From: Gnetum montanum
Lineage: Eukaryota > Plantae > Gnetophyta
Assembly: GCA_015680685.1 (NCBI GenBank)
Contig: MNCI01000986.1
Span: forward strand, 293,648-357,647
Reading direction: 5' to 3'
DNA: 64,000 nucleotides
Shown here: positions 20,881 to 62,979 of the stretch, piece by piece
Numbering within the stretch: position 1 is the stretch's first letter
Layout: every line of letters starts with the position of its first letter
Made by a program: the position numbers and the translations under genes
Notes under the pieces: generated by a model
What the model saw: only the letters and a program-made list of their open reading frames with translations
The model's database searches: none
What the model was told of the DNA's origin: nothing

Positions 20881-20962
20881 CAAGAGCGCGAGAGGGTGAC
20901 CTCCACGCCTCATCATCCAAAGAGCTGTGGCAGAGTTGCAGAGGAATCACAGCGCCAGCAAC

Positions 20963-31978: not shown

Positions 31979-34582
31979 TTAAAATGGTCCTAGACAGTGG
32001 AGGTTCTTGAGACTTTGAAGGAACTTCTCCTACTTCAAGCGCATGTGGTGGCTGAGGTGGTTGTGGCTATCTTGAGGCAGTTGCAACTTCTTGGGAAAGA
32101 TGGAAGGCATCCAATAGTACTTTCATCTTCTCCTTCTTACTTTTGGTATCATTCACAGTCCACACCACCTTGCAAATGTGGACTAGTGTGGGAACATCCC
32201 AAGGATAGGGCATTATCGGTAATAGCTCCTTCACATTAATGAACTAAATAGCAAAACATTTTCGTTCAACATTAAACACCTTGACTACATTCTTCAACTT
32301 TTAGTAGTCACTCATTCTCTTCGTTAGGTTCTCGGCTGTAGACCATTGATCGGTGAAGCACTACCTAATTACATTGAGTCTTTAATTTTCCACCTTAAGC
32401 TTCTACTTAGTGTCTTTGTGATGCTTGAACTCAGCTTTGTATAGTAAGTACGAACTAGCCACCTATTTCTCTAATTCAAACTACAACTATTTGATAGTTA
32501 GCATTGCTAGATTTGCATAGCAGAGATTGGCAAGCTCCATGAACTCTATCATGTCCTTGATTTGCCTCTCTTTCATGTAGATCTCCACCTTGTTGTAGTC
32601 ATTGAGCGCATCAAAAATAGGCTACCAGACATCACCTCCTTCCTTGAGTTATTGGAGGGCCTCATTAACTTTCACCTTCACTATCTAAATATGTTTTTCA
32701 TTGATTTATTTTTGTAGACCAATTTGATCTTTGTAGTGAATTTTAACTCTCTTAAATTTGAGAGCCTCATTTTTCTAGGTGGCCACCTCTATTATAGATT
32801 TTTTGACAAAGGGCCCAAACTTCCTCAATGGAGAGATTTATATTTTTGGTTGCCAATCTCCTTAGTTCAGTGTTTAGTCTAGCTAACTACTTCTGCTATT
32901 GATGGATGAAATCTTGCATTTGCTACTTTTGCACATCAACATTCCATAGGTAGTGATTTTCTATGATCATAGTAACCTTCTTCTAGTGAATTTGATTCAA
33001 GGTCTTTTGGATATTATGCATGGTAACATTGGCCAAGGATTGATCAACGATTGTTGTCTCCTTCACATTCTCAACCTTCTTAAGCTTTTCCTAAAGCTAT
33101 TAAAAAGCTTCATCACAAGTCAGTGTAGGGCTAAGAAATGCCAAATCAGCAAAGTGGGCCCTTAGTTTTGCTACCTCTATAGCCAAGCATTGGTTTTGAG
33201 CCTAGGCTATTTTGAGTTGCTCTTCCATGCTAATGCATTTTCCCTTTGCTTCCAATAGGTTTGACTAGGTTGTAGTGACTGTATCTGAAAGATCAAAGAC
33301 ATCTAAAATCAATTTCCTGATTCCCACTAGTTAGTCTAGTAACTCCTCATGTTGCGCTATGTTCAATTTACTGCTAACTATTCCTGTGGATGTCTGCACA
33401 TCTCTTAGTGTTGAACCATTTGGTATAGACACCATAGGTGTGTTTAATGCTTTGGTAATTCTATCAACAACCACCTCTACTACTGTCTCCTATCCATGGT
33501 GCTACATCACCAAGACAGTTGCTCCCTCACCCCCTCCAAGAGCACCGAGAAAGTAATGACATTCCTAGAGACTTCTAGAAATTGTTGTTGTTGTGAGAGA
33601 GAGATTGTTACCTCTTAAGTGCTAGGATTCGATCTTGTGGGCAGCTGCATTCTTTGAGTTGAGAAGATTAGCACACATCCTTCCATATAGCTAATGGTTT
33701 GAGCTAGTTCATTGAGGTGCCATTTTGCATAGTTTTCTAATGAGGTAAGGAAAGGGCAAGGCCTTTCTTCCATGTTTTTTTTTCCATAAGTCGCTTCTGT
33801 GTCTCCAAAAAGATTAGTTGTGGAAGATTCACAGGGAATTTCCCATTGAAAGTACCACATGCATGGGCAGAAAAGGCAATCACCTTACTAAACCTCATCG
33901 TTGGATTAAGATGATAGGTTCCTATCTTGAAATATACATGCTTCACTAGGGTGAGTGCACCATAGTCCTTGTAGTCTAGTCCATAACATCACTAGGTCTA
34001 CTCCTTCTTTGCCTCTAGGTCTACTTGTGTGAAGATCTCTATCAAATCTATTCCAATATTAGGGAAATCAAGGACCTGTGCAATATCCTCCACTGAGTAG
34101 GATACCTAAATCTCCTTGATCTTCACAGTGGCTCTTGCCTTCCTACCATTTTAGAAGAAATATGTCTCTTCCATGTACCATTCTCCATTGGAAGTGATGA
34201 TTGGCCACATGGGAGAGTTCTACAATGGTGCTTTGACTTTTGGTGGAGCATGTTCTAGGAATGATCCAAAGCTCAATTCTTAGAGAACTAAATGTTGGAT
34301 ATTACAAGGCTTGATCTGATCTAGGTAGGCTTGAGTTAATGTGACCTCAAGTCTTCGCACTGGTCCTGGTGCCTCATCCCAATGGGATTGTTTAATTATG
34401 GCCACTTTCTTGGGAATCCATTGGACAAATTCCACTTTAGGCTACTCCCAAAGATGTCTTGTTACATGAGTTTTTGGTGCTTGTTCTTGAGCTTGTTCTT
34501 GTTGCTCTCTTCTAACTCTAGGTTGTTTGTCCCTTGGTTGAAATAGTCCTCCTTCCTACATGTGTATTGTTCTAGGTGCCAC
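31979..34582 (-). pseudogene. Athila ORF2 ('env-like' accessory ORF): conserved N-terminal domain, long coiled-coil region and C-terminal PYPWDVP motif
   Basis: SPMWPIITSNGEWYMEETYFF*N, YFKIGTYHLNPT and MPYPWDVP are shared with 45440-47014 and 60042-62790. It occupies the slot just upstream of the PPT and 3' LTR. Confidence 0.75.
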
Positions 34583-35740
34583 ATGTAATCACAACATGAC
34601 CAAGGATTAGCACTTATTGTGTAACTTGAAATACTTGGAATACCTTATCTCTTAGGGTAGTTACACTTAGAAAAGTTGTGATCATGGTAGATTTGATTAT
34701 TTTAATATTATTTTATTATTATTTGATTAGATAGATTATTGCAGTGTGTTGGAAGGGTTTAACTCTCATAGGTTGATGATTTAATATTATTTTATTCATT
34801 AAACCCATGGGAGAGTTAGAAAAGTTCCATTTTTTTTTTCCAAAAACCTAAGGTTTGTCATCCCTGTGACATAAAGAATACCTTCGAAAGCTACAAGACT
34901 GAGGAACAAAGTGAATTGAACAAACAATTTAAAAGTTATGGGCTCTGGAAGATTTTAAACTTTGCAAAATTGTAATAACTTCCCTTAAATTTGAAGAAAA
35001 TGATAAAAAATTCCTAAGTGGTGGGCACTATATATAGAATTTTTTCCATGCATTGACTAGGCCTCATTGATGGGGCCTAGTTGATGTGGTTAGTTACATT
35101 AACTGGGCTTAGTTAACACAGATACTGATCCCTATTGACCAAGTAAAAATTAAAAAAAAAAATACAAAGAGCTTTTGAATGAGATTGGAAAAGTCCAAAA
35201 AGCCATGAACACAATGAGATACATGAAGAGGGCTTGAAATTTGATAAAATATGGACAATGATTGGAGAAATGCCTTAAGGAGTACATAGTTGGATGTAAC
35301 TGATGGGGTATACAAAAGATTTGATTGTCAAAATGTTCCTGGATAAGGGACTTAACTAGTCCAACCAAGAGCTATACAAGTGGATCCTCCCCATAGTAGG
35401 CTTATCCCCTTTTTTTGACCTTACATAGCCTCAACTAAGGAGTCCATGGGTCCCATAGTTGATTAATGGTTATGAAAAGTTAAGGACCAAATCTGAAAGA
35501 ATCTACTTAAGAATTTTAGCACATCAAACTAAGACATTGAACAAAAACATGAAAATCAGTAGTGAGGTGAGTTATGAAAAGCATTGATAGATGAGATAGA
35601 GATTGAAATGGATTTCCCAATCATGGTTGCATGAAGTCCCTTATGAATTTCATGGTTAAATGACCTGATCAAGTTCATCCTTAGTCTAGATCAAAACCAA
35701 CCAATTTTGATGACTTTGCATCATCACTCTAGGACCAGTT

Positions 35741-37423
35741 TGAAACACCACAAAATTTGGGTTATTGCTTCTTGACTACAAATTTGGGACTATGTTCTTC
35801 ACTACACCAAAGTGTAGTCAACATAGTGGAGAGTGTAGTTAGCTTCAAAGACTAATTTTTGTAATTTTTCTTAAGTGTTAGTATGAAGTAAGAAGCTGCA
35901 AATTTTTTTAAGTGTTGGGACTATGCTCTTCACTACATCAAAGCATATTCAACTAAGTAGAGAGCGTAGTCAACACTAAAAGCCATTTTACAAATTTTTC
36001 TAAGTATCAAGCCAGCAACTGCAAAATGTGGTGGACATGGAAGAAATAGTTTGGAAAAAATTTTCTAACTATTGAGACTATGCTTTCCACTAGATTGGAG
36101 CGTCAAGGCTTAGTATTTTGTAGTCTTTTCTAACTATTGAGACTATGCCCTCCACTACCTTGTAGTGTAGCCAACTAGGAGTCAAATTTTGCATAAATTT
36201 TCTAACTGTTGGGACTATGCTTGACCCCAGTTGGGAGCATATTCAACCTCTCCCAGAGTGTAGTTATCACATAGTCACTTTTCTACAAAATTTGTCTAAG
36301 TGTTGGAGTACACTTTTCCCTAATCCAGAGAGTAGTTAAGCATATTCATGCAAAATAGCCTCCAAAGGCCTCCACAACATAGCATAGGCATTTAGGTCAT
36401 CTTTGACATATCTCTAGCCAGTCACATGTATCTTTTTGGCATCCCCCTTTGTCCCAAAATTGTAACTATGCTTGACACCACTCGAGACAGTGGATAGCAT
36501 AGTCCCAAAGTGTAGTCTCCAAATTTGCATTTTTGTTAGGTACATTATGGTCTTTTCAGCACACAAATGTGTAGATGGTAGCATAGTCATAGTCTGGTAG
36601 TCTTAGAGAGTCCATTGGAGCATACTAGAGCATAACACCATTTGCTTCAGTGGAGAGCATAGGTGGGTGTATCGTAGTTCAAACTGTCCCACTGCCACAT
36701 GGTAGCCAATCCACTTTTCATGAGAACCCTAGGCCTATAAATACCCTAGCCCTCAACATTTTAGGGGTTGGCAAATTTGAAGGTTGGCAAATCTAAAACG
36801 AGCTTGACATTTTTGGCATTTTTAGTTAGCATCTCTAGCATTTTGACACTTTGGCATCTCAGCAAGGCAAGATGTTTGAACATCATCATATCTCATTATA
36901 GGACACTACAAACTATTGTAGTCCATTACACACCATGGCAGCCAACCCAATAGGCATAAACATCATAGAAAAATGTCAATTTCATGGCTTAGACATCCTA
37001 AGACTATGACTATGCTATCCATTGCACTTACTATACACCGTAGACCTTCTCAGCCCTCTTGAGGTTAATGACACTTAACCTTGTTTGGGGTGGTGTTGCT
37101 TTCTTTCTTGCTCTCTCCCCCATACATTTTTAACATTTTTACTCAAATTTTGGCATTTTACTTATATTTTTGTTTGTTTTCACACACCGCCATGCATTGA
37201 CACCTTCATTTTGCATTAAAAACCTTGACTACGCTCACTCTCATTAACACTATGAACACTATATAAACACTTAGCACCATTTTGACATCTCATTTTGTAA
37301 GTCTTTATTCAATCGGTAAGACTGCTATGGGCACCCCTGTCTCACATGGATGTGGGGTCAAAGCTATGAGCTTGTGAACCTCTCGGTGTTCCATTCTAGC
37401 CATCGAGGTTTTCGGTCACTATA
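35741..37423 (+). repeat. 5' LTR of the Tat-like element, with an internal array of GACTAYGC..GYGTAGTC units
   Basis: Begins where Athila homology breaks and ends before the PBS; repeated GGGACTATGCT units at ~35785, 35915, 36075, 36140, 36210 and 36465. Confidence 0.7.
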
Positions 37424-37682
37424 ATTTTTTGGTGCTAGAAGGTGGGCTAGATCTATTTCCCTCTTTCAAAATTATGTTGGTTGTTGTCTCGTGTGCTCTT
37501 TATGTCACTATTGCTAGCTTTGGGCTAGTATAGATCGAACACCCCTGTGGACCTGCCACATGCAATAGTAGCTAGATCTTAGGCCAGTGCAGGTGTTGTC
37601 TACAAACTGGTGGGTGTAGACTGGACCTCATTGTTAGATTCCATAGAAGCCTGTGTCACAACTCCAAAATACATATTCCTAT

Positions 37683-37905
37683 ACTTAGCTAAATTTTTGG
37701 CTCTTAGTAGAGAGTGTAGTTATCTCTCAGCGTAGAGAGCATAGTCTCTAGACTTAGCCATTTTTCTATGATTTTTAAACTTAGCCATTTTCTCCAGGGT
37801 TAGTCAATTTTTTGCAGTTTTTAGACTTAGCCATTTTCTGCGATTTCTAGATTTAGTCATTTTTCTACCATTTTTAGAGTTTTCCATTTTCATAGTCATT
37901 TTTCC
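37683..37905 (+). repeat. Tandem repeat of ~20-29 bp units (ACTTAGCCATTTT...) in the Tat leader
   Basis: Repeated ACTTAGCCATTTTTCT..GATTTTTAGA, about 7 degenerate copies. Confidence 0.75.
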
Positions 37906-38289
37906 TTCAATTATCACCATGAATTTCAAACAACCTTAGGCATTCGTTCCAAGCACACTCGTTGTCTTGTCTAGTCAACAAGAAAATAGGGTTGACCACC
38001 TTTCCAATCTTGCCATTGTGAAGTTTATGCAATCCCTTAGGTTGCACAACCAGGAACCTAAGTAGACAAAGCTCAACCATGAACTTTATCTACATGAAGC
38101 TTTAAGTGGGCTTATTCATAGATTGCATGGACATGAAGGCCAAGCAGGGTTACGAACTCATCCATTGAAATGGATAGGACTACATCCCTTCCTCTATTGA
38201 CTTCATCTTACTTACCAAACCCTACTAGTGGACCCTAGCCCACCTCATTCGAATAAGTGAGTGTGAGGCAGGGATGGACTATGAGGAAC

Positions 38290-41200
38290 CCATGAAAGAA
38301 GATTAGGATGAGTTTGAGGCTTGTTCTAAGCATGAGAACTCCTTTTACACCTTCTTCCAATGGACAACCCCCACTCTAGTCTTCCCACAATCTCATCCAC
38401 CCATTTTTCCCAAAATAGTTATAGCCTTGATGTCACCTCCCAGGTCAACATCAATGGTAGCGAGCCATCAAACATAGTACACATGTCAAGATGAAGTGCC
38501 TCCATTTAACTTGCCCTTTGTGGTATCATCGCAACCTACTTAGTTATCCTTGCTAGCAACAATCATGTCTACATGGCCCTACGTGCACACCATGCACCCT
38601 TCCTAGCCCCAAATGACATAGGCACCCTCCATCTTGTCTATTTCATCTACATCTTCAACAGTGGCCCAACCCATCCACACATGGTTTGCCTCAGTCACTA
38701 TGCCCATAGTGTAGCCTATGCAGTAAGCATCCCATATGGTCCCATAGCCTACAACTAGGTCATGGACCACATAGCCAGCATAGCAGGTAGCATCCCATGT
38801 GGATCAAGCATTTTAGCTAATACAAACCTTAATGGAAGAGGTAAAGTAGCTCAAGGCTACCTCCTTTGAAATACTTCACTTGATGGACTTCTACCAAGAT
38901 GATCCCATAAGTTTTATTGTTCCACCACTGACTCTTCCAATGGGGAATCCTTTTCCTCACTTCACTAAGTACAACAGTGAAGGAGACCGTAACACCCACT
39001 TGGTGACCTTTCAGTCTAAGTGCATATTACTATAGGCATGGCCCCATGCCATCAGATGTGTGTTTGCCATGTCCCTAATTGGCAAGGCATTATATTAGTA
39101 CTGGGCATTGCTCAGGCCTTCCATCTCCTATTTAGAGGATCTACTTAGTCAATTCATCACACACTTCAAGTATAATTTGAAGCTAGAAACTATCCTTGAC
39201 TAGCTCATGTAAATCAAGTAGGGCCATCTAGAGCCTATGCAAAAATTTATCCAATGTTGGAGCACTTCATTGAATGAAAACCATGAGCCAATCATAGAAA
39301 TGCACTTTCTAGATATCTTCAAGGACGTAGTCAGTTACTTTATTAAGTCAAAATTATATTATCTAGCCCTGTAGTCCCTAAGCTAGGACTTTGCATAAAC
39401 AAAAAGCATTAGGACATGGTAGAAGCCAACAAGGACCCAGCCTACATGGCCTATAAGAACTTGCACATGAAAAAGGACAAAGACAAGGGCAAGCAAGCTA
39501 CAATTGTGGCAACTATGATGAACAAAGCCAAAGCTACTAATCCAAAGCCAATACCCATGCCACCTAAGGCCCTGACCAACAACAAGATTTTCGACCTTGA
39601 CATCATAACAATAAACTAACCTACAGCATCAACAACCACAACACAAGTGGCTCCAAGGCCCAACTTTGAGCACAAGGATTGCTTAAAGTTTATTCCATTT
39701 CCCCCTCAAATCATCAAAACTCTTGAACCAGCTGCTTAAGGTTGGACATATCTAGTACAAGAAGATGTTTGAGGACACTTGCAAAGGGCATGATAGATAC
39801 TATGAGCTCCTAAGTAATTGCTTGGTTATAGCCCCAAATGAGCCTCTAGTCCCTAAGAACTTTAGGTTGGATAGATTTTGTCACTACCATTAGTTTCCTG
39901 GCTAGAACACTAAATTTTGCATGGCCCTATAGCATGATCTACAATGAATGATTGATAGATGCAAGTTGGTGCTTGATGCTACCAACCCAATGAGGCCTCA
40001 AAACCAATCCATGAGGGTATATAAGGATCCTTTGAATATAGATGATGTAGGGTACATCATCAATTCTATCAATGTCAATGGCAACTTAGAGCCAATGCAA
40101 TGACCATTCATGGTCCATGTGCCCTCTGGCAACATAGGGCCCCCCTCAAACTCCATGAATTTGAGGCCTCCTTTTATCATTAGAGTACTACCTTAGGCAC
40201 CAACAACACCTTTCGTGGTTAGGGTTCCCCAACATGTTGCAGTAGCAACAATTCATCCACCCTTTGTCATAAGGGTGTCCCAACATGCTAACCCCACACC
40301 TACCCAAAGTACAGTGGTTGGTTATGCATTAGTCCCTTCTCACCTAAGGGCCAATCCTACTAGCCACAACAACAGACCATCTAGGTGGTAGCTCGAGAGG
40401 CCTAATGAGCATCTCACTAATAAGATGGCTAGACAACATCAAGAGTAAAGTGCTAGACCTACCCAAACCAATCCCCCTTTCCATAGTCCCTATGGTTGAA
40501 GCAACTGAAAAGGCCATCACCAGCAAGCCACAATGGGGCACTGAGGCCCCAAAATAGGCCAAGTAAACCAAGCCCAAATCTCTTTTGGGAGAGATCCATC
40601 TCCTAAGGTGTATGGAGGAGGTAAAGGCCCAAAAAATGACAGACACTGACAAGGATTTCCTAGATGCACTAGCCTAGGTCAAGTTGGTGTTAAAGTAGAA
40701 AAACATAACTTTGAGCCTATACTACCTAATTATGACTACCTCTTCCCATTGCTAAGTGCTAGTCCAAATATTGACTTCTATTCTTATCACAAAGGACATC
40801 CCTATAGTTGAACATTCTATCCATGCTGTGATGTTGCCTCCTACATCATAGGAATTGAGCTCAACACCCCTAGCATTCCCCAACGAGGTAATAAAGGTTG
40901 ATCCTAAGAAGGGTCAAGTCATCACAACATCCATGTTTATCATGATATGCGTTGTGCAGTGCAAGATCAGTAGGGTTCATGTTGATGATGGGGCAGCAAC
41001 AAATGTCATCCCATGCACTGTCATTGACAAACTAGGCCTCATTGAGTAGATGCAACCTAGAAGGACAATGTGTCTAAAGTCCTTCAATGGGTTGTGCATC
41101 ATTGTTAGGGGAACCATAACGATAACCTTTTTGGTAGGGGAAGAATTCACCACTATTGCTGAGTTCATTGTTGTAGAGGAAATGCCAAGCTTCAACCTAA

Positions 41201-41580
41201 TATTGGGCAAGCCTTGGTTGGCCCAATTATGGGCTGTTTTGTCTTCCATTCATCAAGAAATCCACCTTTCATATGAAGGTGGTGATGTCATTATTCATGG
41301 TGATAATGTAGCCCCATTTCACCATAAACAACATTAACACAAAGCAAGGGTCAGAGGTGGAGTTTCTTGATGACGCATTCATAGTAAGGATGAGGATGAA
41401 ATAGGTGAGGCTAACCCACTCGAATAAATAGAAGAAGCCAATGACCTTCCAAAGGATACTTTATGGGAAAAAATACCCTTTGAAATAGTAGACGAAGATG
41501 AAGGGGAATACCACATAGTACCATCTAGGCCCTACACACCTCCTAACCCACACTGGGTTAGGAAGCAATTGTGCGACAAA
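38290..41580 (+). pseudogene. Tat/Ogre-type gag-protease pseudogene
   Basis: FTKYNSEGDRNTHLVTF, FAMSLIGKALY*Y, knuckle FCHYH*FPG*NTKFC (~39877-39920), and protease RVHVDDGAATNVIP and SFNLILGKPWLAQLWAVLSSIHQ. Boundaries are approximate. Confidence 0.85.
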
Positions 41581-41864
41581 TTTATCTCCTTAGTCCAAAC
41601 ATGTGTTAGGGGCTTACTTGCCCTTTATTTTTACATTTAGTCATGCATTAGATTTATCTACACATTTACATTTAGCTTTATTACTTAGATTTTGCATTAT
41701 TTTTCTTTTTTTACATAGTCATTTGCTTTATTTATACATTCTGTTTAGTCTATGAATTTCCTTATTTAGCTTATCTTTTAGTAGTTATTAGCTTATGCAT
41801 GAAAAACATGCAAATGAATAAAAATCAAAAAGCCAAAAAATCGCAAAAACAAAGTAGCTCTACA

Positions 41865-42030
41865 TGGCCCACCATGGCTTTAAACTAGCAATGTTATGGC
41901 CTGGAATGGCCTTAAACTACCATGGGGCCTAAAATGGCCTTAAACTATCATTGTGGCCCAAAATGACCCTAAACTAGCATGGGCCCTCCTGCTATGGCCT
42001 TAAACTAGCATGGGGCTCACAATGGCCTAG
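41865..42030. repeat. Tandem repeat of ~29 bp units (ATGGCCTTAAACTAGCATGGGGC...)
   Basis: Five to six copies of GGCCTTAAACTA(G/C/T)CA lying between convergent gag-PR and the antisense gene, an arrangement like Retand elements. Confidence 0.8.
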
Positions 42031-42229
42031 TTACATTATCACTGCATAATCTTAACTTAATGCATTAATCCATCGCATCACAACTATAGTAATCACAAAA
42101 GAAATAAAATAAAATAGAGTTTGCACATTGCACATATAGCAAACACATGTATTACATATCACGCAAATAGCAGTACATAGCATGAGCAGCATGAACAACA
42201 AAAAATACAAAAAAAAATGCAAAAATGCC

Positions 42230-44300
42230 CAGTATGAGGGCTACATCAGGACATGCTCAACTGGTGGCACTAGGTGGAGGTGGAGGTTTCTATTCCCCAC
42301 TATACCGTTGGGGCCTGTAGCATCTCTTGGTACTTGCTGCCAAAACTGCAACAAAAATGAGTAGTTAGTAAGAAAACCTATAATACTCAAGATAACAAAA
42401 AACATGAAACAATAAAAAACTAATAACTAACCTAAGAGGGTCCCACATTAACATCTTCTAGAGGCAACTTGTCAAGGCCATCCTCCAAGTGTCAGAGGAT
42501 CTTAGCCTTGGAATGCTACATTTAGTACTCCTAGCCAAAGTCAATCCCTACAAGGGTCTTGCCTTTGTCCATGGTGGTCCATGTGGGTGGCTTCGTGGAA
42601 AAGGTAGTAGAGGAAACTTCTTCTAAATGGGTGGCAATATACTATTCAAAAGAGACACTCACCACTGTATGCTGAGTGGACAACTCATAGGACTACCTCC
42701 CACCAGTCACCTCAAGGAACCTTTTTAGGTAGCGGTGTTCAACAAATTCTTTCTTGTACCATCAAAGGTATGCATCGTGCTTACACTTGTATTGGTGCTT
42801 GTGATTCTTCTAATTCCACCCCCATTGGTACACCTTCGTATTGTAATTCTTCTAGTCTTGGTTCCTTTGAGTGAGTAGGTTCATCTATAGCCGTTACTCA
42901 ATCACCTCCTGAGTAATCTCATTCTTGCCTCTAAGAGTTGACCAATAACAAGCATATTCTATCTTAGAGGTTCTCCAAGCCTTATCTCTGATTGCTAGAA
43001 AGTCATATCGGGATTGAAGATCTCTGATTTTTATATCTTAGCTAGTCACTCTCTCTTGCAGCTCATGTATGTGTTTACATAGGTGCTCATTCGAGTGCTT
43101 GTAGATCAATAACGCCTTTGCACAGGAAAATGCACACTTTCTTGCTATCTTGTACATGCAACAAAACATCTAATCCACCTCAGGAGGGAGGTTAGGGAGG
43201 GCATCCAGCTTTGCTACCCTGCTTAGATCCCATTGAATCTTAGAACCTATTAGCATGTAACAAGTGAATAATCTTAGCCACAACATTCAATCAGTAAAGT
43301 AATATAAGCAAAGGAACAACATAACAAGCATACCAAGCTTGGGATTTGCCTATTGCAAATGGTCCACCATGTCCTCCACAATGTCCTTCATGAAGGAAAG
43401 TTTGTTGGGCATGTCTACCCATGACTCCATGTGGTAGGTAGAGGTGGGGCCACTAGTAGGAACATCTAAGGCTGTAACACAATGATGTAATCTACATATA
43501 ATCAAATAGCCAAAGATGCTAGAGAAAATATACAATAACATGTGGCAATCCAAATCACTTACCTAGCAAGCCTTCAAGTGTTAGTGCAGGAGGATCACCC
43601 AACTGTATGTCATCAAATAGGCAATCAAATTCACCCTCATCGGGGTGGAGTAACCCCTCCTCCTCTAATTACTGAAGGATCTTTGTTGTGCCAGGTAACT
43701 CATCTCCATGAGTCTCACCCTCAGTTTGGGAAGGTGCTTCTTCTATTACTGCCTTGATAGCTACTTTGGTAGCCCTCTCTCCAATCTCTATAATCAACAC
43801 ATATGCATAACATATTAGTACTAGTCAATAGCATAGCATAATAAAAACCTAAAAATATAAACAAATATTAATACAATAAATGCATTTAACAAGTTACACA
43901 TACTAACTTGAAACCTCCGTACACAAGCTTTGGAACTTGATATCGATCTTCTTATTACTTAGCCTCCCAACCTTAGGAGTAGCTTCCTTTGTAGGGTGTG
44001 GCCTCTTAATATTTTCCTTGGATGATCCTACTATCTTTGGAATGCAACGATCCATCTTAGTCACATCTCTAGTGCTAATAGGGGGACCATTGCCTACATT
44101 GTCACATGAATAGTGTGACCATGCCATGGTATCTTTAGTCATTATTGATATTGACTCATCGATCTCCTCTGGGGGATCCTGTGCCTATGTGGTCATAAAT
44201 AGGTGGTTGAACCATGGTTTGCATAGCTTCTCGTGGTCTTGCACCATCTAATGCCCATGATCACGTATGACTAGTAGCTCTACAAACCTTCACAGGAACC
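42230..44300 (-). pseudogene. Multi-exon antisense accessory gene of unknown function in the Tat-like element (exons 44300-43908, 43787-43563, 43471-43334, 43246-42432, 42345-~42230)
   Basis: Four AT-rich GT-AG introns of 120, 91, 87 and 86 nt (donors GTTAGT, GTAAGT, GTATGC, GTTAGT; TACTAAC branch point at 42364-42370). The first three introns join reading frames in phase 1. Confidence 0.7.
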
Positions 44301-44353
44301 CTGCAAAGAATATGAAGTGAACGTGGGATTGTGCCTAGATATTAAACCATAGC

Positions 44354-45237
44354 TGATGACCAGCGAGGTACCCGTATGCCCAACCATACAAATCACGAGC
44401 ATTCACGTGTGACCCAGTCGAATTCCAAAGACTACAAGCACTTATGTACAAAGAATTTTAGCTAGCAAAACCTTAGTTAGAGCAGTTGTTGTCTTCCCAA
44501 CCTTACTTGTGATATTCTAAAATGATGGTTGAGTGAGATTGAGGTAAATGATTTTTATAAGTTTTCTTTTTATCTTGAAATTCTAATTCTTTTAGTGTAG
44601 GAAATGAAAGGCTATATAATTTTACAATTACACTACTTTATCATTTAACTATTGCTCACATAAACAACCAATCCCATCCTCTGTGCACATCCTGAGCATG
44701 TCCTAACCACTACTAGGTTACCAGACATTAAGCATCATTGGGTTATCAAGTGTCAGATATATGTTCAAGATGGTCATGCTTGTGGTTCTCATAAACTATG
44801 AAAAGGACTGTAACTGTAAAGCCATAATAACAAAATCTAAAATTATTAAAATATTAAAATATTTTAATGCTTAAGTAGTTTAATCCAAATGCTGCAAGGA
44901 ATGTCAAAAATTTCATCTTTATTGTCCGTCATGCCAATGGGCTCAGGTACATTAGCAATCGAATAAAGAGTCGTATACTCTTCAACTCCTGCTACGAGTA
45001 CTTGGGAAATATTCTAACTTTTGTGGAAACAAAATACAAGAGCTTTTCTACAACTATATCAAAAAGATGCCACAAATGCTACGGGTGCATGCATATTTAT
45101 AGTAGAAGACAGACTCTTCGTTAATGAGGTCATGTTAATGCATGGACAGATGCGTCGATGGGGTTATGTCATTGTGGCCATGTCAATAAGGCTTAGTTAA
45201 CATAGCCCAGTCAATGCATCAACTGAACACTTCATCA
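44354..45237 (-). repeat. 3' LTR of Athila-like element 4
   Basis: TGATGACC...TTCATCA; homologous to the other Athila LTRs in the window. Confidence 0.88.
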
Positions 45238-45439
45238 TACCCCCACGACTGAGTGAAAACTCATCCTTGAGTTTATTACAACTTGGAAGGTATGAAGTTA
45301 TTAATGACACACACAACAAAACACATCTATATAAACACTAACTCTATCAACACACCAAGTGCCCAAGTGTATGAAAAAAAAAATTGCAAAATTATGGTGC
45401 TCATAGACAATGAAATTGAACACCCTAACAATAATGGAT

Positions 45440-47014
45440 TCTCAACCTTGCTGAAATGCTGAAGTTGCTAGAGAAGGTCACACAGTTCCTAGTGGCAGTG
45501 GTTCTGACGGGCCTTCACTAGCTTCTAGTGCACGTGGCGATTGAGGCATTGATGATGGTTACCTTGTGGTTGCTGCAACTTTTGGAGGTAATTAAAAAGC
45601 CTCCAAAAATGCCCTCATCTTGTCTTCTTTGCTTCTAGGATATTCACAGTCTAGGTAGCTTCGCCAATGTGTGCTGGAATAGGAACATCTCAAGGACATG
45701 GAAGTGCAGGGAAGAGTTTCTTCAAGTAGTGGCATTTCTTGAAATTTTAAGAAATAGTTGTTGGGTGGACACCATTACTTCTTGAACATTGGGGTCTGTT
45801 CTTGCAAGAACTTGTGTTCATGCAGCAGAAAACATCAGCCCTACTCTCTCTAGCATACTTACAGATCAAGCCACTTGTTCAAGATGGCTCATTGCAAGGT
45901 AGTACACTAAAGGGTCTTCTCCACTACCAGTTCCTATTGATTGCTCCTATTGGCTTAAGAATGATTATTGGATTTCACGTATGTGCTCTATGATATATGA
46001 AAATCTAACCTTGTTGCTTGTGCATGCAGTGGAGGTGGTTGTTGTTCTTTCCTTATTTATGTTGTGGCAGGAGTTTTGTCCTTCATCATCTCACACCACG
46101 AGGCAATTGGGGTGTGATGAAGTGTATCATTGGCATAATGTGCTATCCTTGCTTATTTGCACAATCTTTTAATTAGGTAAGGAAAGGGCAAAGCTCATCT
46201 TCCACATTCATTTTCAACAAATATTTTCTCAATTTCAAGAAAAAACAACTATGAAAAGTTTATGGGAAATTTTCCACCTAGAGTAGCACATGCAGGAGTA
46301 GAGAAGGCAGTGATCTTGTTGGGTCTTACTGTTGGATTTAAGTGGTAAGATGTGATTTTTGAGTAAACCCTCTCTATGATGGTTAATGTGTCGAACTCCT
46401 TACAGTCTACCCCATAGCACCACTTGATCCACTCCCTTTTCACCTCAAGGTCCACTTTTTTTGGAATCTCTACCACATTAGCCCCAGTCTCAGGCAACCC
46501 AAGAGCTTGCACGATTGCCTTTGCAGAGTAAGATACATGGATGTCCTTACTTCTTACTCTGGACCCCAGCTATTGATTTTTCTAGAAAAGATAAGTTTCT
46601 CCTAGATACCATTCACCATTGGACGTGATGATTGGCCCACATACGAGAATTTTGCAATTGGGTGTTGGCTTCTTCTGATGCATTTTCTAGAAATGGTCTA
46701 ACGTTTAATTCTTGAAGGACCATTCGTTGTAACTCCCTTGGCTTAATAGCATTAATACAAGCATGGGTTAGGGTGACCTCAAGTCGTGGTGCTATCGCTA
46801 GAGTCTCGTCCCCTTGCGATTGTTCACTAGGAACATCCTCTTCAGGAATCTAACGAACAGATTCCACGTTAGGTCCTTCGTAGAGAGGGCTATTTGCATG
46901 TGATCCCTCCACATGCTCTTGAGGTTATGCACCATATCCTCTTCCAGCTCTAGTTTTCTTGTCCCTCAGTTGTGAGATTCCTTCTTCCCTTGGATGCCTT
47001 AGTTTAGGTGCTAT
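45440..47014 (-). pseudogene. Athila ORF2, short form lacking most of the coiled-coil region
   Basis: ORF 46249-46512 (KREWIKWCYGVD..YSKITSYHLNPT) and C-terminal LPCP*DVP are shared with the other ORF2 copies. Confidence 0.7.
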
Positions 47015-49179
47015 TTGTAGTCATAGCATAACCATGAATTAAAATATGTATAAGTTGTTCAAAATGGAAATAATACACTTTCTCATTTTGGTCAAGCTAT
47101 GACAATGGCACATGCATCCTATTTGGTTCCCCGGAGTGTAGTTGATGTGTTAAAAAAATAATAAAATATGATAAATTTAAATTAATAATTACTTTTTGTT
47201 TGTTTAACCCTGAAGAGGTGTTAAGTCTTTGATAATCACAATAATCATAGATCCCTTCCCCCCACGATGTGGAGCATACCTTCGGTAGCAAAAGGGTAAA
47301 AAAAAATGGATAGATTGGAATACACAGTAGGAAAGGTATGTGCTTGAAAAGAAGACTGAACGTAGAAAAATCAAAAAGCTCCCCTAGTGTTATGAACAAG
47401 TGAACAAACTTCAAAGGCATGACGTGGTTATATATAGTATTTTTCTATTGTGTCGACGGGGCCGCGTAAACAAGGCTACGTAAATGTAGGTGGATGCATA
47501 TACAGGTCCTAGTTGATGTAGTCGTTCAGCTGAGTTGACCTACGTTGACCATTGAATTAAGAGCCCAATTCTATGAATTATAGCATAAAATTGGAGTGAT
47601 CCAAGAACCTAGAAGCTAGATAAAAATATGAGATAAAGAGAAAGGTAGATTGTGATCAAAAGAAGAGTCAAATTTAGGAGAATCATAACATGGAACTTGG
47701 TGGATGAAGAGCCTCACAATGGGCAGCATAGAAATGATCAACCAACTATATCAAAGGGGTAGGAGATTAACAAACGAAAACAAAGCATGTGGAAGTGAGT
47801 CCTTCCCATAGAAGGCTTCAACCTTGTTTGCCCCTTGCACATCATCAACATAAGACTTCATGAGCCCCATAGTTAATTAATGGCCACTGAAAGTTAGTAC
47901 TCACATCCATGAGAATTAGTCGAAGGTTTTACAAGTTCTAGCAAACCAAGAAAGATGATCAAAACATAAAACTGGGAGTGATGTAAGTAACAGAGAGCAA
48001 TTGATGAAGGGAAGAGGGTGTGAAATGAAATTCCTAATTGTGGTTACATGAAGTCCCTTGTGAAGTGTGTGATTAAGTGACCCGGTAGGATCCATCCTCA
48101 ATCCATACCAAAACCAAGCACATGCAGTGACTTTGCATCAACATTCTAAGACTAGTCCATCCTTTGAGACATAAGAATGCTCCTACAAAACAACCACCAT
48201 TCCAAAATGGATGAAAGATAGGAAGTGAGAAAGGGCCTTAGTTAGAGGGGATAAAACAAGTCCTATAACTAATGCTTGTAGCCTTTTAGAGTTGGTCTAA
48301 GGGGTGTGCTTTGAATTCTCATGTTTTTTTTTGTTGAATGGGAACCACACCATGCAAAAACCCATGCGTTTTTGCATGTATTTTGTCCAAGGAGTGTGCT
48401 TTGAATCCTCATCTTTTTCTTCCTTCTTTCTTGTATTTCTCTCTTTTTTTTTGAATGATGAGTACCACACCATGCAAGGACTGATTGCTATTTAAATTCC
48501 TGTTATGGAAGGATATGGAATGGTAAGAAGTCCATGAGAACACTCTCGCATACAGGGGAACCAAAAAGCACAAAGAATGTTGCATTCCCTTGATGTCACA
48601 CCTTATTCACACCATTGGATCCTCCTCAATTCTGGAAACTACACAAGTCACAAATTAATTAAAGTTGTTTTTAATGAAAAAGGGATTGCATGTTTCCAAA
48701 ATAAGGAAAACCATAGAGTGTGTGGATGGATGGATGATGTGGACTTACTACCTGTTACATGAAAAGAAAGTATAACTTAGCTTCTTAGAACAAAAAATGC
48801 TAAGGTAGGAACTAGATATAATAGGCAAATTATAATATGCAAACCACCACAAAGAGAAACAACTGCACCATTGTATTATGTGGCAATAAGATATCTTATT
48901 AGCAAAAAATATAAAACAATTGAAAGATAAGTAAGTATATACATATAGAAATAAAGAAAGAAAAAGTAGGTAAGAATTGTAAAACGTACGAATGATAGTG
49001 TAAAAGAAAAACCAAAAAAAAAAGAATTGAGGGGCCAGTAAAATATTTTAGCATGGATGGTAATCTCCCCCACGACTAAGCTGGGAGGAGGAGATCCAAA
49101 AAATGGAACAAGGCTAACTGTGCGATAAGAGGGTAGTGACACTGGTTTGGTGGGGTTCATGGAAGGGTTTTAATTATTG

Positions 49180-52100
49180 CATATTGACTAATTGTGTTCT
49201 ATAGGATCCTTAGGTTTGTGTATAAGTATGGCCCTACATGGAAAGGTCTTGGAAACAATATAAGATCCCTCTCACAGTGTTTGAAACTTAGTACATTGTG
49301 GTACATGTGTGGGGTTCCAATAGAGAATCTTATCTCCATCTTGAAATGTTACCTTTAAAATCATAAGATCATGACATTTTTTATTATAGGCCTTATGCAC
49401 TTCATTGGATGATAGGGCTACTAATCAATTATCATCTAGCACATTCAAGTTGATGAGTCGTTCTCGTTGTGCTAGGGATAAGTCAAGACCCAAGTAACTG
49501 GTGGTGGATAGTGTTCAGAGTTTTTCTTGAATTGGAAGTTTTGGTAGTTTTCTGTACACTAAATCATAAGGAGAGTAGCCTATAGGAAGTTTCCACATTA
49601 AGCGGTAGGCCCAGAGGGCATCGTTAAGTTTTGTGCTCCAATCTCTCCTATATTTGCTAACGGTCCTAGTTAGGATCTTTGTAATCTTCTTATTTATGAC
49701 TTTGGCTTGCCCATTGGCTTGGGGGTAATAGGGTGTTGTAAATTTATGTTCAACCCCCAAGAACTACATGAGTTTATGAAAAGTAGTACCCATGAAGTGA
49801 GTGTTGTTATCTGAAATGAGTGCATGTGGCACCCCAAACCTGTTCACAATTTTCTATTGGACAAACTATGCAGTCATGGTTGAGGAACAGTCAATGACAG
49901 CTACTGCCTTTGCCCACTTTGTATAGTAGTCTACTACGACGATGATATACACCTCCCCATTGGACATGGGTGTGATGGATCCCACGAAGTTGATGCCCCA
50001 AATATCGAAGGGTTCAAGTGGCTGAATTCACTGTTGAGGTCCCTCCATTCTTGTCATCATCCCACCATCTCTCTGACATTGTTCATAAGAGTAGATGAAC
50101 CATTAAGAACCTTCAAAGAGTGTAGGCCAATAGTAGCCTATAAGTAGGATCTTAATGGCCATGCACCATCTAGCATAATGGCCCCCACAAGGGCCCTCAT
50201 GAGCATCTTGAAGGATGTGCAGTTTATCCGCATCAGGGATGCACCATTGAACCAAGCCATCCATACACACCTTGTAAAGGTGTCCATTGATTTCCATGAA
50301 GTACTTGACTTTGTGAAGAAATTGTTATTTATTTCGATGATCCCACTCCTTTGGTAGCTTTTGTGTCAAAAGATAGGTAAGGATGTCGCCAAACCAAGTT
50401 GATCTTGTGGGCACTTTCTTGGCAATTGCTCCAACGAAGAGGAGTTCATCTGGAAACTAATTAGAGAGTGGCTCCTCCTCCTATGTGTGGTGCCATCGTA
50501 ACTGAGACAAGTGATCAGCAACCACATTCTCGATCCCCTTTTTGTCCACCATAGTAAGGTCAAATTCTTGAAGAATCATGAGCCACTATATTACATGGGG
50601 ACTTAGCGTTGGTTTGTTCATAAGGAACTGGATGGCACTATGGTCAGCATGCATAAACACCTTGTATTTGAGCACATAGTGTTGGAACTTTTCCAAGGTG
50701 AACACCACCACCATTAATTCTTTTTTGATGGTAGTGTAATTGAGCTAAGCACCCATAATGCTTCAGCTTGCATAGTGGATGTAATATGGACATTTTTGGT
50801 CATCCAACTGTGTCAGCATAGCTTCCAATGCATAATTAGACGTATTTTTCATGATGTGAAATGGTCTAGACTAGTCAAGTGTTTGTAGAATTAGAGTCTC
50901 TATGATTTTCTATTTTAGTGTTTGGAATGCAAACTCACATTCCCTAGTTTAGACAAACAGAGCGTCTTTCTTTGTTAGTTCCACCAATGGCATGGTGATC
51001 TTTAAGAAATTCTTGATGAAGCATTGATAGTAACCAATGTGTCCAAGGAATGACTGGACATCTTTTACAGTACCTGGTTGACTAGTGATTCCTTGGATAA
51101 TCCTAATTTTTTTAGGATCCACACTGATCCATGCTTGTAAGATTTAATTCCCTAGAACAATGTCCTCTTAGACCATTAAGTGGATCTTTTGCAAGTTGAG
51201 CCATAAATTATTTTCCACACATATTTTTAAAACTTGCTCAAGGTGGTCCAAGGCTTGCTCAAATGTTTCTCCATAGGTGGAGAAGTCATCCATGAAGACT
51301 TCTACACCATTGCCAAGCTGTTGCTGAAAGATGCTAAGGACAAGGTGTTGGAAGGTTGCAGGTGCATTGCATAGGCCAAAGGGCATCTTCTTATATGCAA
51401 AAGTCCCCTGGGGACTTGTAAATGTTTTCTTAGCATGGTCTTCAAGAACAATCTAGATTTGGTTATAGCCACTATAACTATCCAAGAAGCCATAGTAGCA
51501 ATGCCCCGAAATGGTATCCAACACTTGGTCCACAAATGGAAGTGGGGAATGATCCTTAAAAGTTACCATATTTAGTAATTGGAAATCTATACAGACTCTC
51601 CATTTGCCATCCTTCTTTTGCACAATAATGAGTGGATTGACCTATTCACTATCTACAATGGGATAGATGAATCCTGCTTTTAGCAATTGTTCAATTTTAT
51701 CTTTGATGATTTGCTTAAGTTTGGGATTCAATTGTCTTTGTGTCTATCATCATGGCTTCATGGAGGGGTTGATATAGATCCAATGTTGGCATACCCTAGG
51801 ATCAACTCCTATCAACTTAGGATATGACCATGCGAAAGTAGTCAACCATTTGTTCACCATCTTTAGCAGTCTTTTTTTTTTAGAAGCAAGAGTGGCATTG
51901 ATTATTACCGGCTTGCCATTTTGCAAGAATGCATATTCCAGATTGGCCAGTAAGGGTTTTAGTTCTAGGTGTTCCTATTTAAATTTTTTAGGGATCTGCA
52001 ACTTTCCCCAATTAGCATTGTCATTAATAGTGGAAAGTTGTTGATAGACTTATTCCAATTCATCCATGCTTTCCATATAGGCACATACAAGGCCTTCAAA

Positions 52101-52750
52101 GGATTCCATGCATATATTGCTACTATTAGAATTAGTGGTCAGCCACTAGGTGCCTTCCTGGTTAGTGGCTATTAGATACAAGCATTATTGAATTTGTGAT
52201 TCTGCAGCACATCGACTATATGCTTGAATGGATGCCCAATTAATGGACCAAAGTTACTGCACATAGTTGCACTCGGAATCACTGTATGTGATGCATGGAA
52301 CATGCTTCTTCTCAATCTTCCCAAAAGGATTTTCCTTTGAAATTTCAAGGGAAAGATCTCGGAGTCCCAAACATGCATCCACCATGCTGAGCCAAGCTCT
52401 TTCCATTATAATCAGAAAATCCCCCTTGCAATTATCAACACGGATGACCATGAAGTCAGCAGGGTAGGACCACCCACAAACAATGGTCATAATATCTTCT
52501 ACCAATCCCAAGGGAACCGTAATGGACTGGTCTGCTAGCTTAAGCCAAATGTTACTTTTCTTCAATAGGGGCAAGTACCAAGTCTTGTACATATCATGTG
52601 AAATCAAGTTGACACCTGACCTTGAATCCAAAAGTGCTTTGCATGGCTCGTTTCCTACCACTTGGAGGTATATGAGGGGACTCCATAGATTAGTCAATTT
52701 TCGAGGAAGATGACCTACCTTTATCCAGTCCATTATAACATGTGTTAACA
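49180..52750 (-). pseudogene. Athila pol: protease, reverse transcriptase, RNase H and integrase (degenerate)
   Basis: PR KALLDSRSGVNL; RT WRVCIDF..LN..KDHSPLPFVDQ, MPFGLCNAPATFQ, VFMDDFS; IN HEGPCGGHY, PFDIWGINFVG, ISDNNTHF, YYPQANGQAKVINK, DWSTKLNDALWAYR. Order is PR-RT-RH-IN. Confidence 0.95.
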
Positions 52751-53362
52751 TGATGGTTTGTACTTTTGGAGGTGTTTGGCTTGAAGGCTGCTCAAAGGAT
52801 CGAGTGGTAGAGGTGATTGGAGATTTAGAGGCACTAGCCATAAGTGAATGTGAGGGCATGTTTGGGTTATTGGGCTAGAAAAAGGAACGTTTCCATGGTT
52901 TTGATTCTGGCCCACTTGGCTAAGAAGCCAGTTGTAAATTGACAGCCCTTGTGGCATTACATTACTGTGGCTATGGTGGTATTTCTCCCTGCATAAGTGG
53001 AGCAAGAGGTAGTTGAGTTGAGGGTTGATGAGTAGGTATGGCAAGAGAAGATGGCGGAGGATAATGTAGATGTGGGTTCTTCCCCCTAGGTAATGAAGAC
53101 TAGGTTCAAAAGTATTTTGATGGATAGTAATGATTTTGGAAAGGTGCATGACAAGAAGAGTCTCACGGGGAGATTGGTTGTTGAACGTAGTACCCATAAG
53201 GATCTGGCTCCTGGTAAGGGTACAACTACCTTGGAGGTGGCATCCCCCATGATTGTGGGTGCTTCCATTACTGGTAATGCTCATAAGGTTGTGAGATGGG
53301 GGATCTCACAAAAGAGATCATGATGATGGGGGATGTTCATATTGGCAAATCACACCTCTCAT
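52750..53362 (-). pseudogene. C-terminal gag remnant of element 4
   Basis: Homologous to 26500-27070; ends at the zinc-knuckle codons at the fold-back junction. Confidence 0.7.
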
Positions 53363-54744: not shown

Positions 54745-55548
54745 CAATGAGTTGTGATTTGATGGGCCCTGACATTGGATACCCGACATCACCTCATCTG
54801 GATCTTGCCTATAAATACTGCACTTGGGCTCTCAGATGAGACAACATGTAGAACATAGGACATAATTTTAATTTTCAGTTTCTTCTATTTTAAGTCTACA
54901 TTTCTAGTGCATGCATGTAGCATGATGTTTGTAACCATATGAAACCTTTGTTTGAGTGTGACATACTTAGACATGTTGCATGATTGGCAATAAAAATTGA
55001 GATTAATCCCATCATTGCATCATCTACTTTGATTAATATTGTTGCTTTAATTATTTATTTTTTTCCTTAAACATTTCCATTTATTGTTATTTATTATTCC
55101 TATTATTAAGTGGAATGTATACACCTTAATCATGAGTGTGTAAGTGTAAATACTTGGTAATCCATAGGTGTATCATTTGGTACGACTAGTGATGTACACT
55201 TGGCAATCCATAAGTAATCTCACAAAGTCCAAGACATGTACAGATAGTTAGGAGAAAATACCATCACCCATAGGCTAGTTAGATTTTTTTTTTCCATTAT
55301 TCATTAGTTTAATAATTCATCTATTTATTGTCATCAGGAGTAGTGTAGAAATTAGATAACATCATATGCCTCACTCTGGAGTAAACCATATGTAACAAAG
55401 CTACCACTAAAGTGGGAAGATAGTGAACTATGATCAAAGCATAACAATCTATGTGTTACAACTAGTCCCATCCATGGAATTCTACTGAATTGCATATGAA
55501 TGCTTGTAATTCATATGGTTGAGCATAGGGGTACCTCACCACTTGTCA
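54745..55548 (+). repeat. 5' LTR of element 5 (terminal TG mutated to CA)
   Basis: Direct repeat of 62980-63826; TATAAATA at 54810. Confidence 0.9.
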
Positions 55549-55673
55549 TTAGCACCATTACTGGGGATGGTGCTAGTTATCTAGATTAGTTATATTATAC
55601 ATAACCCATGTAAAGGAATTAATGATATATCTTTTAGAAACTCTTCACTCACTCACACCATAAACCCAAAACA

Positions 55674-57850
55674 ATGTATTTTTTACATGGAAGTGACTAT
55701 GCACTATATAGCGAACACATTCATTGGAGAAATAATAAGATATATGATGAAGAAGACTACAATGATCAACCTTATGCAGGGGTTTCTTATGATTATGGCC
55801 ACTTTAACAGCACTCAAAGACTACATTCACCCAAGGTAGACAATCTTAGAGGAGATGACATAGGTCCTAAACTAGGGGAGGCCTCAAGGCCTAAAACCTC
55901 CTCAAAACTTGGAAATGATAAACCAAGGGACTTTGAGGAACACCATAGAAGCCATGGTAATTCTTCCAATTCCTCATCTTCCTCTTCCCCCTTAACATCT
56001 TGTTCTAATAAAGATGAACATAGGTATAGGGATAGAGCTCCATTAAAGGATCAAACAAAAAACTGGAATTGAATCCATAGGAAGAGTCAAAGAGGACACC
56101 ATGAACATAGGAACTTCCCTCATAATCTGTTTGATGATGATGAACCCCTGCTGGCCACTTGGAGCCTAATGCATATTACAAAGGCCATTAAGATATCTCC
56201 TAGGCATCACAAAAAGAGTCATTTACCCAAGCTAGACATGAATAATATTCCAAAATCTGCAAGAGGCTATGATTTAGATCTACAACATCATTTACAAGCC
56301 TTCCATGATGCTTGTGCTTTCTACAACATTGAAAGTGGATGGTAGAAGTGTAAGCTCTTTCCTAGGATACTAATTGATAAATCCAAAGTGTGGTATTAAT
56401 CATTGAAACCACATTCAATCCGATGGTGGTCAACAATGTTAGAAATTTTCAATGAGAGATACCAAACCTATAAGAGAGTGTCCTACCTAAGGAGAAAAAT
56501 CCAAGAGTGGAAACAAGAGCAACATGAACCCTTGAACATGGCCTTAGATAGATATTATGCCTTGCTAAATAAATGCCCAGGCCATGGTTTCTCTAAGGAA
56601 GAGAAACTTTACCACATCGTAGATGGGCTTCATAATGAAACAAGGGAAACCCTTGGGATGTATGCCCTAGGGAAACTATATGAGCTCCAAGCCCATCAAA
56701 TCAAAGAGCTCATAGAGCATATGGCAATAGAAGAAGGAGAAATGTGTAAATGGAAGTATGTTGAAAAACATCAATGGGACCCAACTCTTCAATCGAAGCA
56801 AGTCCAAATTTATGGTAAGGGAAATGAAACTACCTTTGATAAGGTGATCCCACAACAAACTTTGCCAATAAAGAAGTCTCTGGATGATTTAGAAGCAAAA
56901 TTTAATAGGATGTCTAAATGGATAAATGACATCATGATAACTCTTGTTAAGATGATCATAGAGAAGCTCATGCAACACAAGCCAGGTAATCACAATCAAT
57001 AGAGGATATAGAACCAAGCAACAACTAAGGACACTTTTCGGCAAATGAGAAAAATGGTTGACGAAAGTAAGGCTATATACTCCATTGCAAAAAAAGATGA
57101 TGGATGTAGCCTATTCATATATGACCACCCAAGGGGCCAATGCCCTATATTATTGCATCTATAGGAGTATTGGGTAGGTGCCTTAAATTTGAAACTTATG
57201 CAAAAGCACATGAACAAGAGACTTCCTCTCCCACAAGGTAATTTTAGATAGTCCCACAACCAATCATACCATCCTAGGGGGACTTATTACTAGCCTCAAC
57301 ATGATCATCAACTATAGTGGCAACAACCATAGTCATGGGGGAAGCCACCACCAAATCAACCATACTTGTCAAAACCTCATGGATATTATGTTCAACACCC
57401 TATTTCTCCAACTAGTTGGGTGTTCTCCACTTATAATTACCACTACCACTCTCCTAAGTATCATCAATACATGACATTCCCTGAAGGATCACCACCTCAT
57501 GCCTCTTACCATCCCACCTACCCTTGATATTCTCATAATTCACCTCCTTCAATGCCATCACTAGTAACTCAGGAAGGTCTAGCATCCCAATATCAACAAA
57601 CAAATGTCACTTGTGCTACGAATGTGCATAGACATGCTGATCCCAATGGGTCCCAACTACAACATCAAAAATGTTCCTTCTGGAGGAAAGCTCGTAAGCC
57701 AAAGCAAACCATGCATGAATCCACCACATCAACTAAGCTAGCACAAGGTCAATCTAGTGCACCACCTTCCCTTCCTCAACCAACGTCCTTCAGTTATACA
57801 CAAGGGCCACTATCCATTAGTACTTGAATCCCACATCCAACCAATGAATC
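55674..57850 (+). pseudogene. Athila gag pseudogene of element 5
   Basis: ORFs 55674-56072 and 56403-57002 (KPHSIRWWSTMLEIFNERY..LLNKCPGHGF..IVDGL) and knuckle remnant DGCSLFIYDHPRGQCP. Confidence 0.85.
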
Positions 57851-59445: not shown

Positions 59446-59487
59446 TGATGTCATGTACCTGACGTCGAGTTTGTACAAGCTTATAAA
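59446..59487 (+). promoter_or_regulatory. Putative internal ORF2 promoter (two CGACGTCG-derived palindromes 14 bp apart, then TATAAA at 59482)
   Basis: TGATGTCA at 59446, TGACGTCG at 59460 and TATAAA at 59482. The same geometry occurs at 35029-35086 and 47429-47486 on the minus strand. Confidence 0.55.
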
Positions 59488-62790: not shown

Positions 62791-62979
62791 TTATTTTTTT
62801 TATCTTATTTTGTAATAATGTGTCCCATTTTTGTACTGCACCACTGCAACATTTGAAGAGTTAGTTATTTTTTCCATTGTTTGAGTCAGTCAATAATCCC
62901 ATACCTACCCAATATTTTGTAAAGAACTTGTTCCTCATTTTTTTTAACTTAAGGACAAGTTTTCATTCAATTGTGGGGG

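Follow-up and report, generated by a model that had tools for sequence, protein, structure and literature searches.

The minus strand of the window (by which we mean the whole stretch of 64,000 nucleotides analysed) carries a multi-intron gene between positions 42241 and 44300, the reality of which is confirmed by the analyses below. The best reading, to which we assign a probability of about 0.7, is that it is a spliced antisense accessory gene of a non-autonomous Tat-type LTR element and that its introns survive retrotransposition because the gene lies antisense. The gene copy present here is a decayed fossil. It was shown to be dead by its 19 stops, by a strong CpG and CHG loss and by an Athila-like insertion in an upstream intron.

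Exon-intron structure and reading frame

The four minus-strand introns proposed in a sequence-only reading of this DNA are present. The gene is laid out as follows, in the direction of its transcription:

44301..44353, minus strand: 3′ part of a further intron upstream, truncated by the insertion; its acceptor is strong
43908..44300, minus strand: exon 1 (first visible), 130 codons, 3 stops
43788..43907, minus strand: intron 1, 120 nt, GT-AG, phase 1
43563..43787, minus strand: exon 2, 74 codons, 1 stop, acidic (24% D+E)
43472..43562, minus strand: intron 2, 91 nt, GT-AG, phase 1
43334..43471, minus strand: exon 3, 45 codons, 1 stop
43247..43333, minus strand: intron 3, 87 nt, GT-AG, phase 1
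42432..43246, minus strand: exon 4, 271 codons, 14 stops, with a heptad-like stretch at residues ~50–85
42346..42431, minus strand: intron 4, 86 nt, GT-AG, 57% T, phase 0
42241..42345, minus strand: exon 5, open in phase 0 for 34 codons up to a stop, followed by a T-rich 3′ region

All four introns are GT-AG and AT-rich (69–78% AT), as had been described, and their T content is 45–57% against 24–26% in exons 1–4. The acceptor proposed at 44301-44302 is the strongest of all sites scored. The branch point motif TACTAAC pointed out in intron 4 is indeed present, at a distance of 25 nt from the acceptor; with 12 occurrences in the window it proves little alone. Intron 4 has a second, frame-preserving acceptor at 42337, 9 nt downstream of the first. 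Both strands of the window (128 kb) were scanned with our own rough splice weights. When the thresholds were set at the weakest of the four introns, which makes the test partly circular, the scan returned four intron-like units, all of them being the introns listed above. Looser thresholds yielded 15, 60 and 155 units in the window; four of the 15 are confined to 1.6 kb of a single strand, for which random placement gives P=0.0087. A minus-strand cluster of intron-like units found at 59.7–61.7 kb with loose thresholds was rejected as false, since a long sense ORF occupies the opposite strand there.

The claim that the first three introns join their exons in phase 1 holds, exons 1–4 being connected in a single frame. 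Stops number 18 in the 520 codons of this splice-joined frame, as compared to 34.2 expected (shuffle mean), a count that low being reached in 0 of 2000 shuffles; against a null in which the best frame is chosen for each exon the probability is P=0.02. When a codon-position score trained on an unrelated Athila-like pol is applied, the predicted frame comes out as the best of six in all five exons, with a total reached by 0 of 5000 shuffles, and in the controls the gag and protease frames also rank first. The two tests are independent of the splice scores and they agree; the region was therefore a protein-coding spliced gene. Chance GT-AG pairs around AT-rich patches of a non-coding 3′ sequence could mimic introns, as illustrated by the 60–155 units that the window offers at loose thresholds, by the similar loose cluster at 59.7–61.7 kb that proved false and by the lack of spliced reads in four shallowly sampled RNA runs. 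This explanation is very improbable given that the frame statistics do not depend on the splice scores and that the strict-threshold units are the four introns, four out of four.

Two details of the earlier model are probably wrong. Frameshifts had been assumed inside two exons, but one frame with in-frame stops suffices. Exon 4 taken alone is weak (13 stops in 270 codons, P=0.08) and might hold a small internal frameshift. The product had also been thought to end with the sequence NVGPS at the fourth donor. That stop is likely a result of decay because exon 5 continues in phase 0 with an open frame of 34 codons, which is also the best-scoring frame of that exon. An acidic region and a coiled-coil-like stretch had been noticed in the product; exon 2 is acidic and exon 4 has the heptad-like residues. 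The product predicted from the joined frame would have at least about 550 residues.

No known domain had been recognised in this product, in line with the Pfam search, which is blank for every frame of the gene, including for transposase families. The exon 3–4 frame, with stops written as X, gave 0 matches among 315 candidates at E up to 0.01 in a protein search, and 0 matches among 1.84 billion representatives in a search of low power. Homologues of the protease and gag, used as controls, were not found either, and for that reason the blank says little. The three PDB matches of the exon-4 frame (E 0.8–1.8) are chance matches, and the single-sequence fold of exon 4 has a pLDDT of 34. Scans of metagenome contigs gave 18 pattern matches with the gene frame, none confirmed, and 0 matches with a 20-nt motif of the array described below; the protease had 24 matches in viral contigs, none confirmed, and no autonomous relative was recovered. 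There is no second copy of the gene within the window. The description of the gene as “host-like” is thus justified by its exon-intron structure only, no host homologue having been found.

The element around the gene

The gene is convergent with a protease-bearing ORF, as had been noted for gag-PR. The features found upstream of it in the plus-strand direction are:

35741..37604, plus strand: candidate 5′ LTR, with TG...CA ends, internal repeats and a TATA-like box near 36738
37800..37890, plus strand: 26–27 bp tandem array in a putative 5′ leader
38913..39389, plus strand: decayed gag-like frame, best of six frames by codon score
40891..41313, plus strand: decayed retroviral-type aspartic protease, its frame extending to about 41600
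41865..42028, no strand assigned: tandem array of 28–29 bp units, past the protease ORF and before the antisense gene's 3′ end

The 5′ boundary of the candidate LTR was inferred from the end of an Athila-like match at 35739. The LTR is covered by many contigs of the sequencing runs presented in the next section; no second copy of 35741-37604 is found in the window and no target site duplication was seen. Inspection by eye of the sequence after 37604 identified no primer binding site (PBS). At 37597-37622 the reverse complement of the last 7 bases of the LTR is found just past its candidate end, and the two could form a short hairpin where the PBS is expected. A short coding-like frame without Pfam match is found upstream of gag (37919-38221, plus strand); it may be what is left of a 5′ extra ORF or of gag's amino-terminus. 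The gag-like frame has neither a Pfam match nor a homologue and its motifs are presumably Tat/Ogre-like. Two Pfam families match the protease without reaching their curated cut-offs, RVP_2 with E=0.0036 and gag-asp_proteas with E=0.0084, and we take its motifs to be Ogre-like. Reverse transcriptase (RT), RNase H (RH) as well as integrase (INT) are absent behind the protease in a six-frame Pfam scan of 33000-47500; the same library does find RT, RNase H and rve in an Athila-like pol. An intron-like unit detected at looser thresholds only (41557-41748, plus strand) begins at the end of the protease ORF, at the place where Ogre elements have the intron between gag-PR and RT; no RT follows it here. 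About 300 nt of AT-rich sequence separate the protease ORF from the 28–29 bp array, whose units are arranged head-to-tail and which is heavily covered by contigs in the four DNA runs compared.

This layout (LTR-like sequence, gag-like frame, protease, array and antisense gene, with no RT, RH or INT) is that of a non-autonomous Tat-type element. An antisense coding region and a tandem array are both present 3′ of the polyprotein, provided that the gene belongs to the element. The frequency of stops per codon is similar in the gene (18/520, 3.5%), in gag (8/183, 4.4%) and in the protease (7/286, 2.4%). The observed/expected ratio is 0.18 for CpG and 0.47 for CHG in the gene, as compared to 0.10 and 0.33 in the gag-protease ORFs of the host element. 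The decay signature of the gene is the same as that of the gag-protease region, which supports their association. The lineage of the element cannot be placed because RT, RH, aRH and INT are absent from this copy, and membership in Retand or Ogre is unproven.

Antisense ORFs in the 3′ region are reported for 86% of Retand, 60% of Ogre and 18% of TatIII elements (Additional file 5 of PMC6317226), extra ORFs (eORFs) being defined there by a length of 250 codons. The sections cited of a Retand survey (PMC11963269) report antisense ORFs in all recent Retand clusters, 97% of them with the TRP28 domain, ORFs being called at 600 bp with no mention of introns; tandem arrays often adjoin pol, the 3′ region measures 2.9–6.6 kb and defective elements remain mobile. 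The part cited of PMC7264820 regards the antisense ORFs of Tat elements as being of unknown origin and role, explicitly urges a search for antisense and spliced transcripts and describes the product of Grande gene23 as nuclear and its gene as having its own promoter. Retand elements (Grande gene23, RIRE2 and Silene Retand; PMC11963269, PMC7264820) thus resemble the one studied here by the antisense gene 3′ of gag-pol, the array beside the end of the polyprotein, a 3′ region of at least ~3 kb and the existence of defective members. They differ by having plain ORFs (there are 0 occurrences of the word “intron” in the portions of PMC11963269 and PMC7264820 consulted), whereas four introns and a fifth acceptor are found here, with no RT by which to place the element and no TRP28 in the visible exons. 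No Pfam match to TRP28 (PF04195), at E up to 1, or to the plant mobile domain (PF10536) was found in the visible exons, the 5′ exons being hidden, and the sensitivity of Pfam must be judged from the fact that it also missed the gag of the element itself.

Ogre elements share a gag-protease separated as a unit, an antisense 3′ ORF in 60% of the cases and a long LTR (sections of PMC6317226 and PMC12786077). Their known intron is single, in sense orientation and situated between gag-PR and RT (PMC6317226), and the antisense ORF of 57% of the elements is reported to encode a plant mobile domain, for which there is no match here. No tRNA-Arg PBS typical of Ogre was identified by eye in the present element; in Retand the PBS is for tRNA-Lys, Arg or Asn. 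Gymnosperm TatIII elements also include old decayed copies and carry antisense 3′ ORFs in 18% of 39 elements (PMC6317226, part cited), but TatII and TatIII are defined by the position of aRH and by RT phylogeny, two features absent here. The antisense ORF2 of common-bean Ty3/gypsy elements (pvRetro13 group; PMC4093653) is alike in its opposite orientation, in a similar size (proteins of 436–849 aa among the rows listed) and in a coiled-coil/SMC flavour, some of its proteins having SMC domains; it is found as well in two families without RT. ORF2 differs in that it is a single ORF (“intron” and “exon” occur 0 times in the portion of PMC4093653 consulted) and that no SMC-type Pfam match was obtained for our gene.

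Copies, transcripts and retention of the introns

Among the 20 sequencing runs listed, nine DNA runs from five organisms contain part of the stretch. Four of them (four organisms, three studies) were compared as contigs with positions 35600-44400 at 80% likeness. Between 31,983 and 47,265 contig pieces were placed per run, covering 30 of 30 bins between 35600 and 44400. At the sites listed, 4–104 contigs per run differ from the window in the gene and 3–102 in gag-protease. The gene is therefore a repeat, multi-copy in the four DNA runs, although summed contig depth is not to be equated with copy number. In exon 3, 82–104 contigs per run differ at 43449, and 17–42 differ at sites 43813 and 43826 of intron 1. 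None of the 40 variant sites listed, out of 1645, is a splice dinucleotide; the list of loose ends has 24 of 20,070 rows.

Diverged DNA copies were shown to keep the introns. Intron 4 is bridged, with the intron in place, by a contig that is ~82% identical (48 other letters; X1 record 7), and intron 3 is fully covered by a diverged contig (51 other letters; X7 record 23). No intron-skipping joint is found among the 15 listed of 1765 joints. Two routes are conceivable for a multi-copy gene that keeps its introns, transfer as DNA and transfer on the non-template side of an RNA intermediate. The position behind gag-protease and the array, the equal decay, the similar contig counts and the lack of a CACTA or Helitron end favour the RNA route.

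Movement as DNA would imply that a separate DNA transposon (with a CACTA TnpA-like gene, a Mutator accessory gene or Helitron cargo) inserted into the retrotransposon, an alternative that we consider less probable. Transposition at the DNA level keeps introns whatever their orientation, and plant DNA transposons commonly contain multi-exon genes that encode acidic and coiled-coil proteins. A Mutator-like element would have long TIRs and a 9-bp TSD, its far end lying outside the window. The window is furthermore a deep insertion nest and no contig bridges protease and gene among the 32 pieces listed, of which the longest has 514 nt. However, the junction segment 41540-42260 shows no CACTA terminus (two CACTR matches, both without terminal context) and no Helitron-like end (0 of 7 CTRRT sites with a GC-rich hairpin), even if decay could hide one. 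The gene frames have no transposase Pfam match, the array is head-to-tail at the usual place of Tat arrays, and contig counts and decay match those of gag-protease.

A host gene taken up once, or a host gene family beside the element, that decayed in place is an improbable source of the sequence. Its short introns are host-like and capture of gene fragments by LTR elements is described as frequent in large plant genomes (section cited of PMC13477047), but this origin fits poorly with the diverged contigs, which number from dozens to about 100 at a site and come from four organisms, with a TE-like loss of CpG and CHG that contrasts with the peroxidase-like gene of the same window, and with the absence of a homologue among the 1.84 billion representatives of the low-power search.

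Under the preferred reading of an antisense accessory gene, genomic RNA of the plus strand would start at the 5′ LTR, pass through gag-protease, the tandem array and the gene, and end at the 3′ LTR. The introns would be read in this RNA as CT...AC and hence remain unspliced, so that each cDNA copy would retain them. RT and integrase would be supplied in trans, as the copy has none. By analogy with Grande gene23 and with HBZ of HTLV, a promoter situated within the 3′ LTR or close to it would drive a separate minus-strand transcript, which would then be spliced to the mRNA. HBZ of HTLV-1, a spliced antisense gene transcribed from the 3′ LTR (part cited of PMC3185765), and APH-2/3/4 provide the precedent for such a mechanism in an LTR retroelement; they belong to animal deltaretroviruses and consist of a leader exon and a main ORF, not of a five-exon coding region. 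By these analogies the gene would work like Tat antisense accessory genes and, in its mode of expression, like HBZ. Also by analogy, its product would most plausibly have been a nuclear regulator or an anti-silencing helper of the element, a tentative proposal of low confidence.

RNA was searched in four of six raw runs, 2% or 26% of each being examined, and strand could not be assigned. At this shallow depth no joint matching an intron was found in the four runs. The three joints listed are all inside the tandem array, and six reads of run X10 inside intron 1 are unspliced. Only 1 of 4052 reads placed is at least 99% alike to the window, so the RNA signal comes from other copies. First mates of X10 map mostly to the plus strand over both gene and protease, the library type not being given.

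Tat elements are already known to have antisense ORFs, and retroviruses to have spliced antisense genes. Plant LTR retrotransposons are generally without introns, Ogre and EVADE being sense-strand exceptions (section cited of PMC12786077). A full-text literature search revealed no multi-intron antisense gene in a plant LTR element; a prior description is possible. Work by Steinbauerova on extra ORFs in Ty3/gypsy elements (2011) and on Ogre splicing (2008) may already describe spliced eORFs. We lean towards the view that a high-copy Tat-type family carried a host-style gene with at least five introns, and without known relative, through many rounds of reverse transcription in at least four related species. 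If the gene was kept in many copies it would be a natural demonstration that orientation decides on intron survival in retrotransposition. The antisense 3′ slot of Tat elements would be a shelter in which intron-containing genes are fixed and spread, which may also explain the origin of Tat antisense ORFs, and the positions of the introns would offer a handle for tracing the donor gene. An entire class of spliced accessory genes would have escaped surveys based on ORF length (250 codons or 600 bp). This would be a blind spot of TE annotation, as only exon 4 of the five exons is long enough for the threshold of REXdb (250 codons) or that of the Retand survey (600 bp).

The inserted Athila-like element and the rest of the window

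The 5′ end of the gene had been described as hidden by an insertion at 44354. This is indeed the case, and the 3′ LTR of the host element is likewise out of reach. The insertion starts with the following feature:

44354..45237, minus strand: 3′ LTR of the inserted Athila-like element, TGATGA...TCATCA

Its 5′ LTR is absent from the window. Pfam matches in the inserted element identify Transposase_32 at about 46140-46560 of the window, and RT, RNase H and rve in 49500-53300. Loose ends at 44354 were counted in 229–321 contigs per run, with an agreement of about 0.4 and unrelated flanks. Records of organisms B and C pass the junction by 29 and 24 letters, the bar being 31; it is only suggested that the insertion is common to these two organisms. 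A 50-nt motif spanning the polypurine tract (PPT) of the inserted element (45232-45281) attracts most RNA reads in the four RNA runs, these reads originating from diverged relatives.

Old fragments of LTR elements form a nest in the window, their LTR pairs being 77–83% alike, and CpG (observed/expected 0.22) and CHG (0.41) are strongly depleted. The scan of 33000-47500 also gave a match to the Pfam family “putative plant transposon protein”, in keeping with a plant. A GC-rich, apparently intronless and frameshifted sequence at ~20960-21890 (plus strand), which we take from its motifs to be class III peroxidase-like, shows no CpG or CHG loss (observed/expected 0.88 and 1.04). Two related Athila-like elements with both LTRs, 81–83% alike, occupy 54747-63826 (plus strand) and 3672-9869 (minus strand). 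The former has a gag (Pfam E=1e-7), followed without an evident pol in between by a long sense 3′ ORF whose end is coiled-coil-like (~60000-62500).
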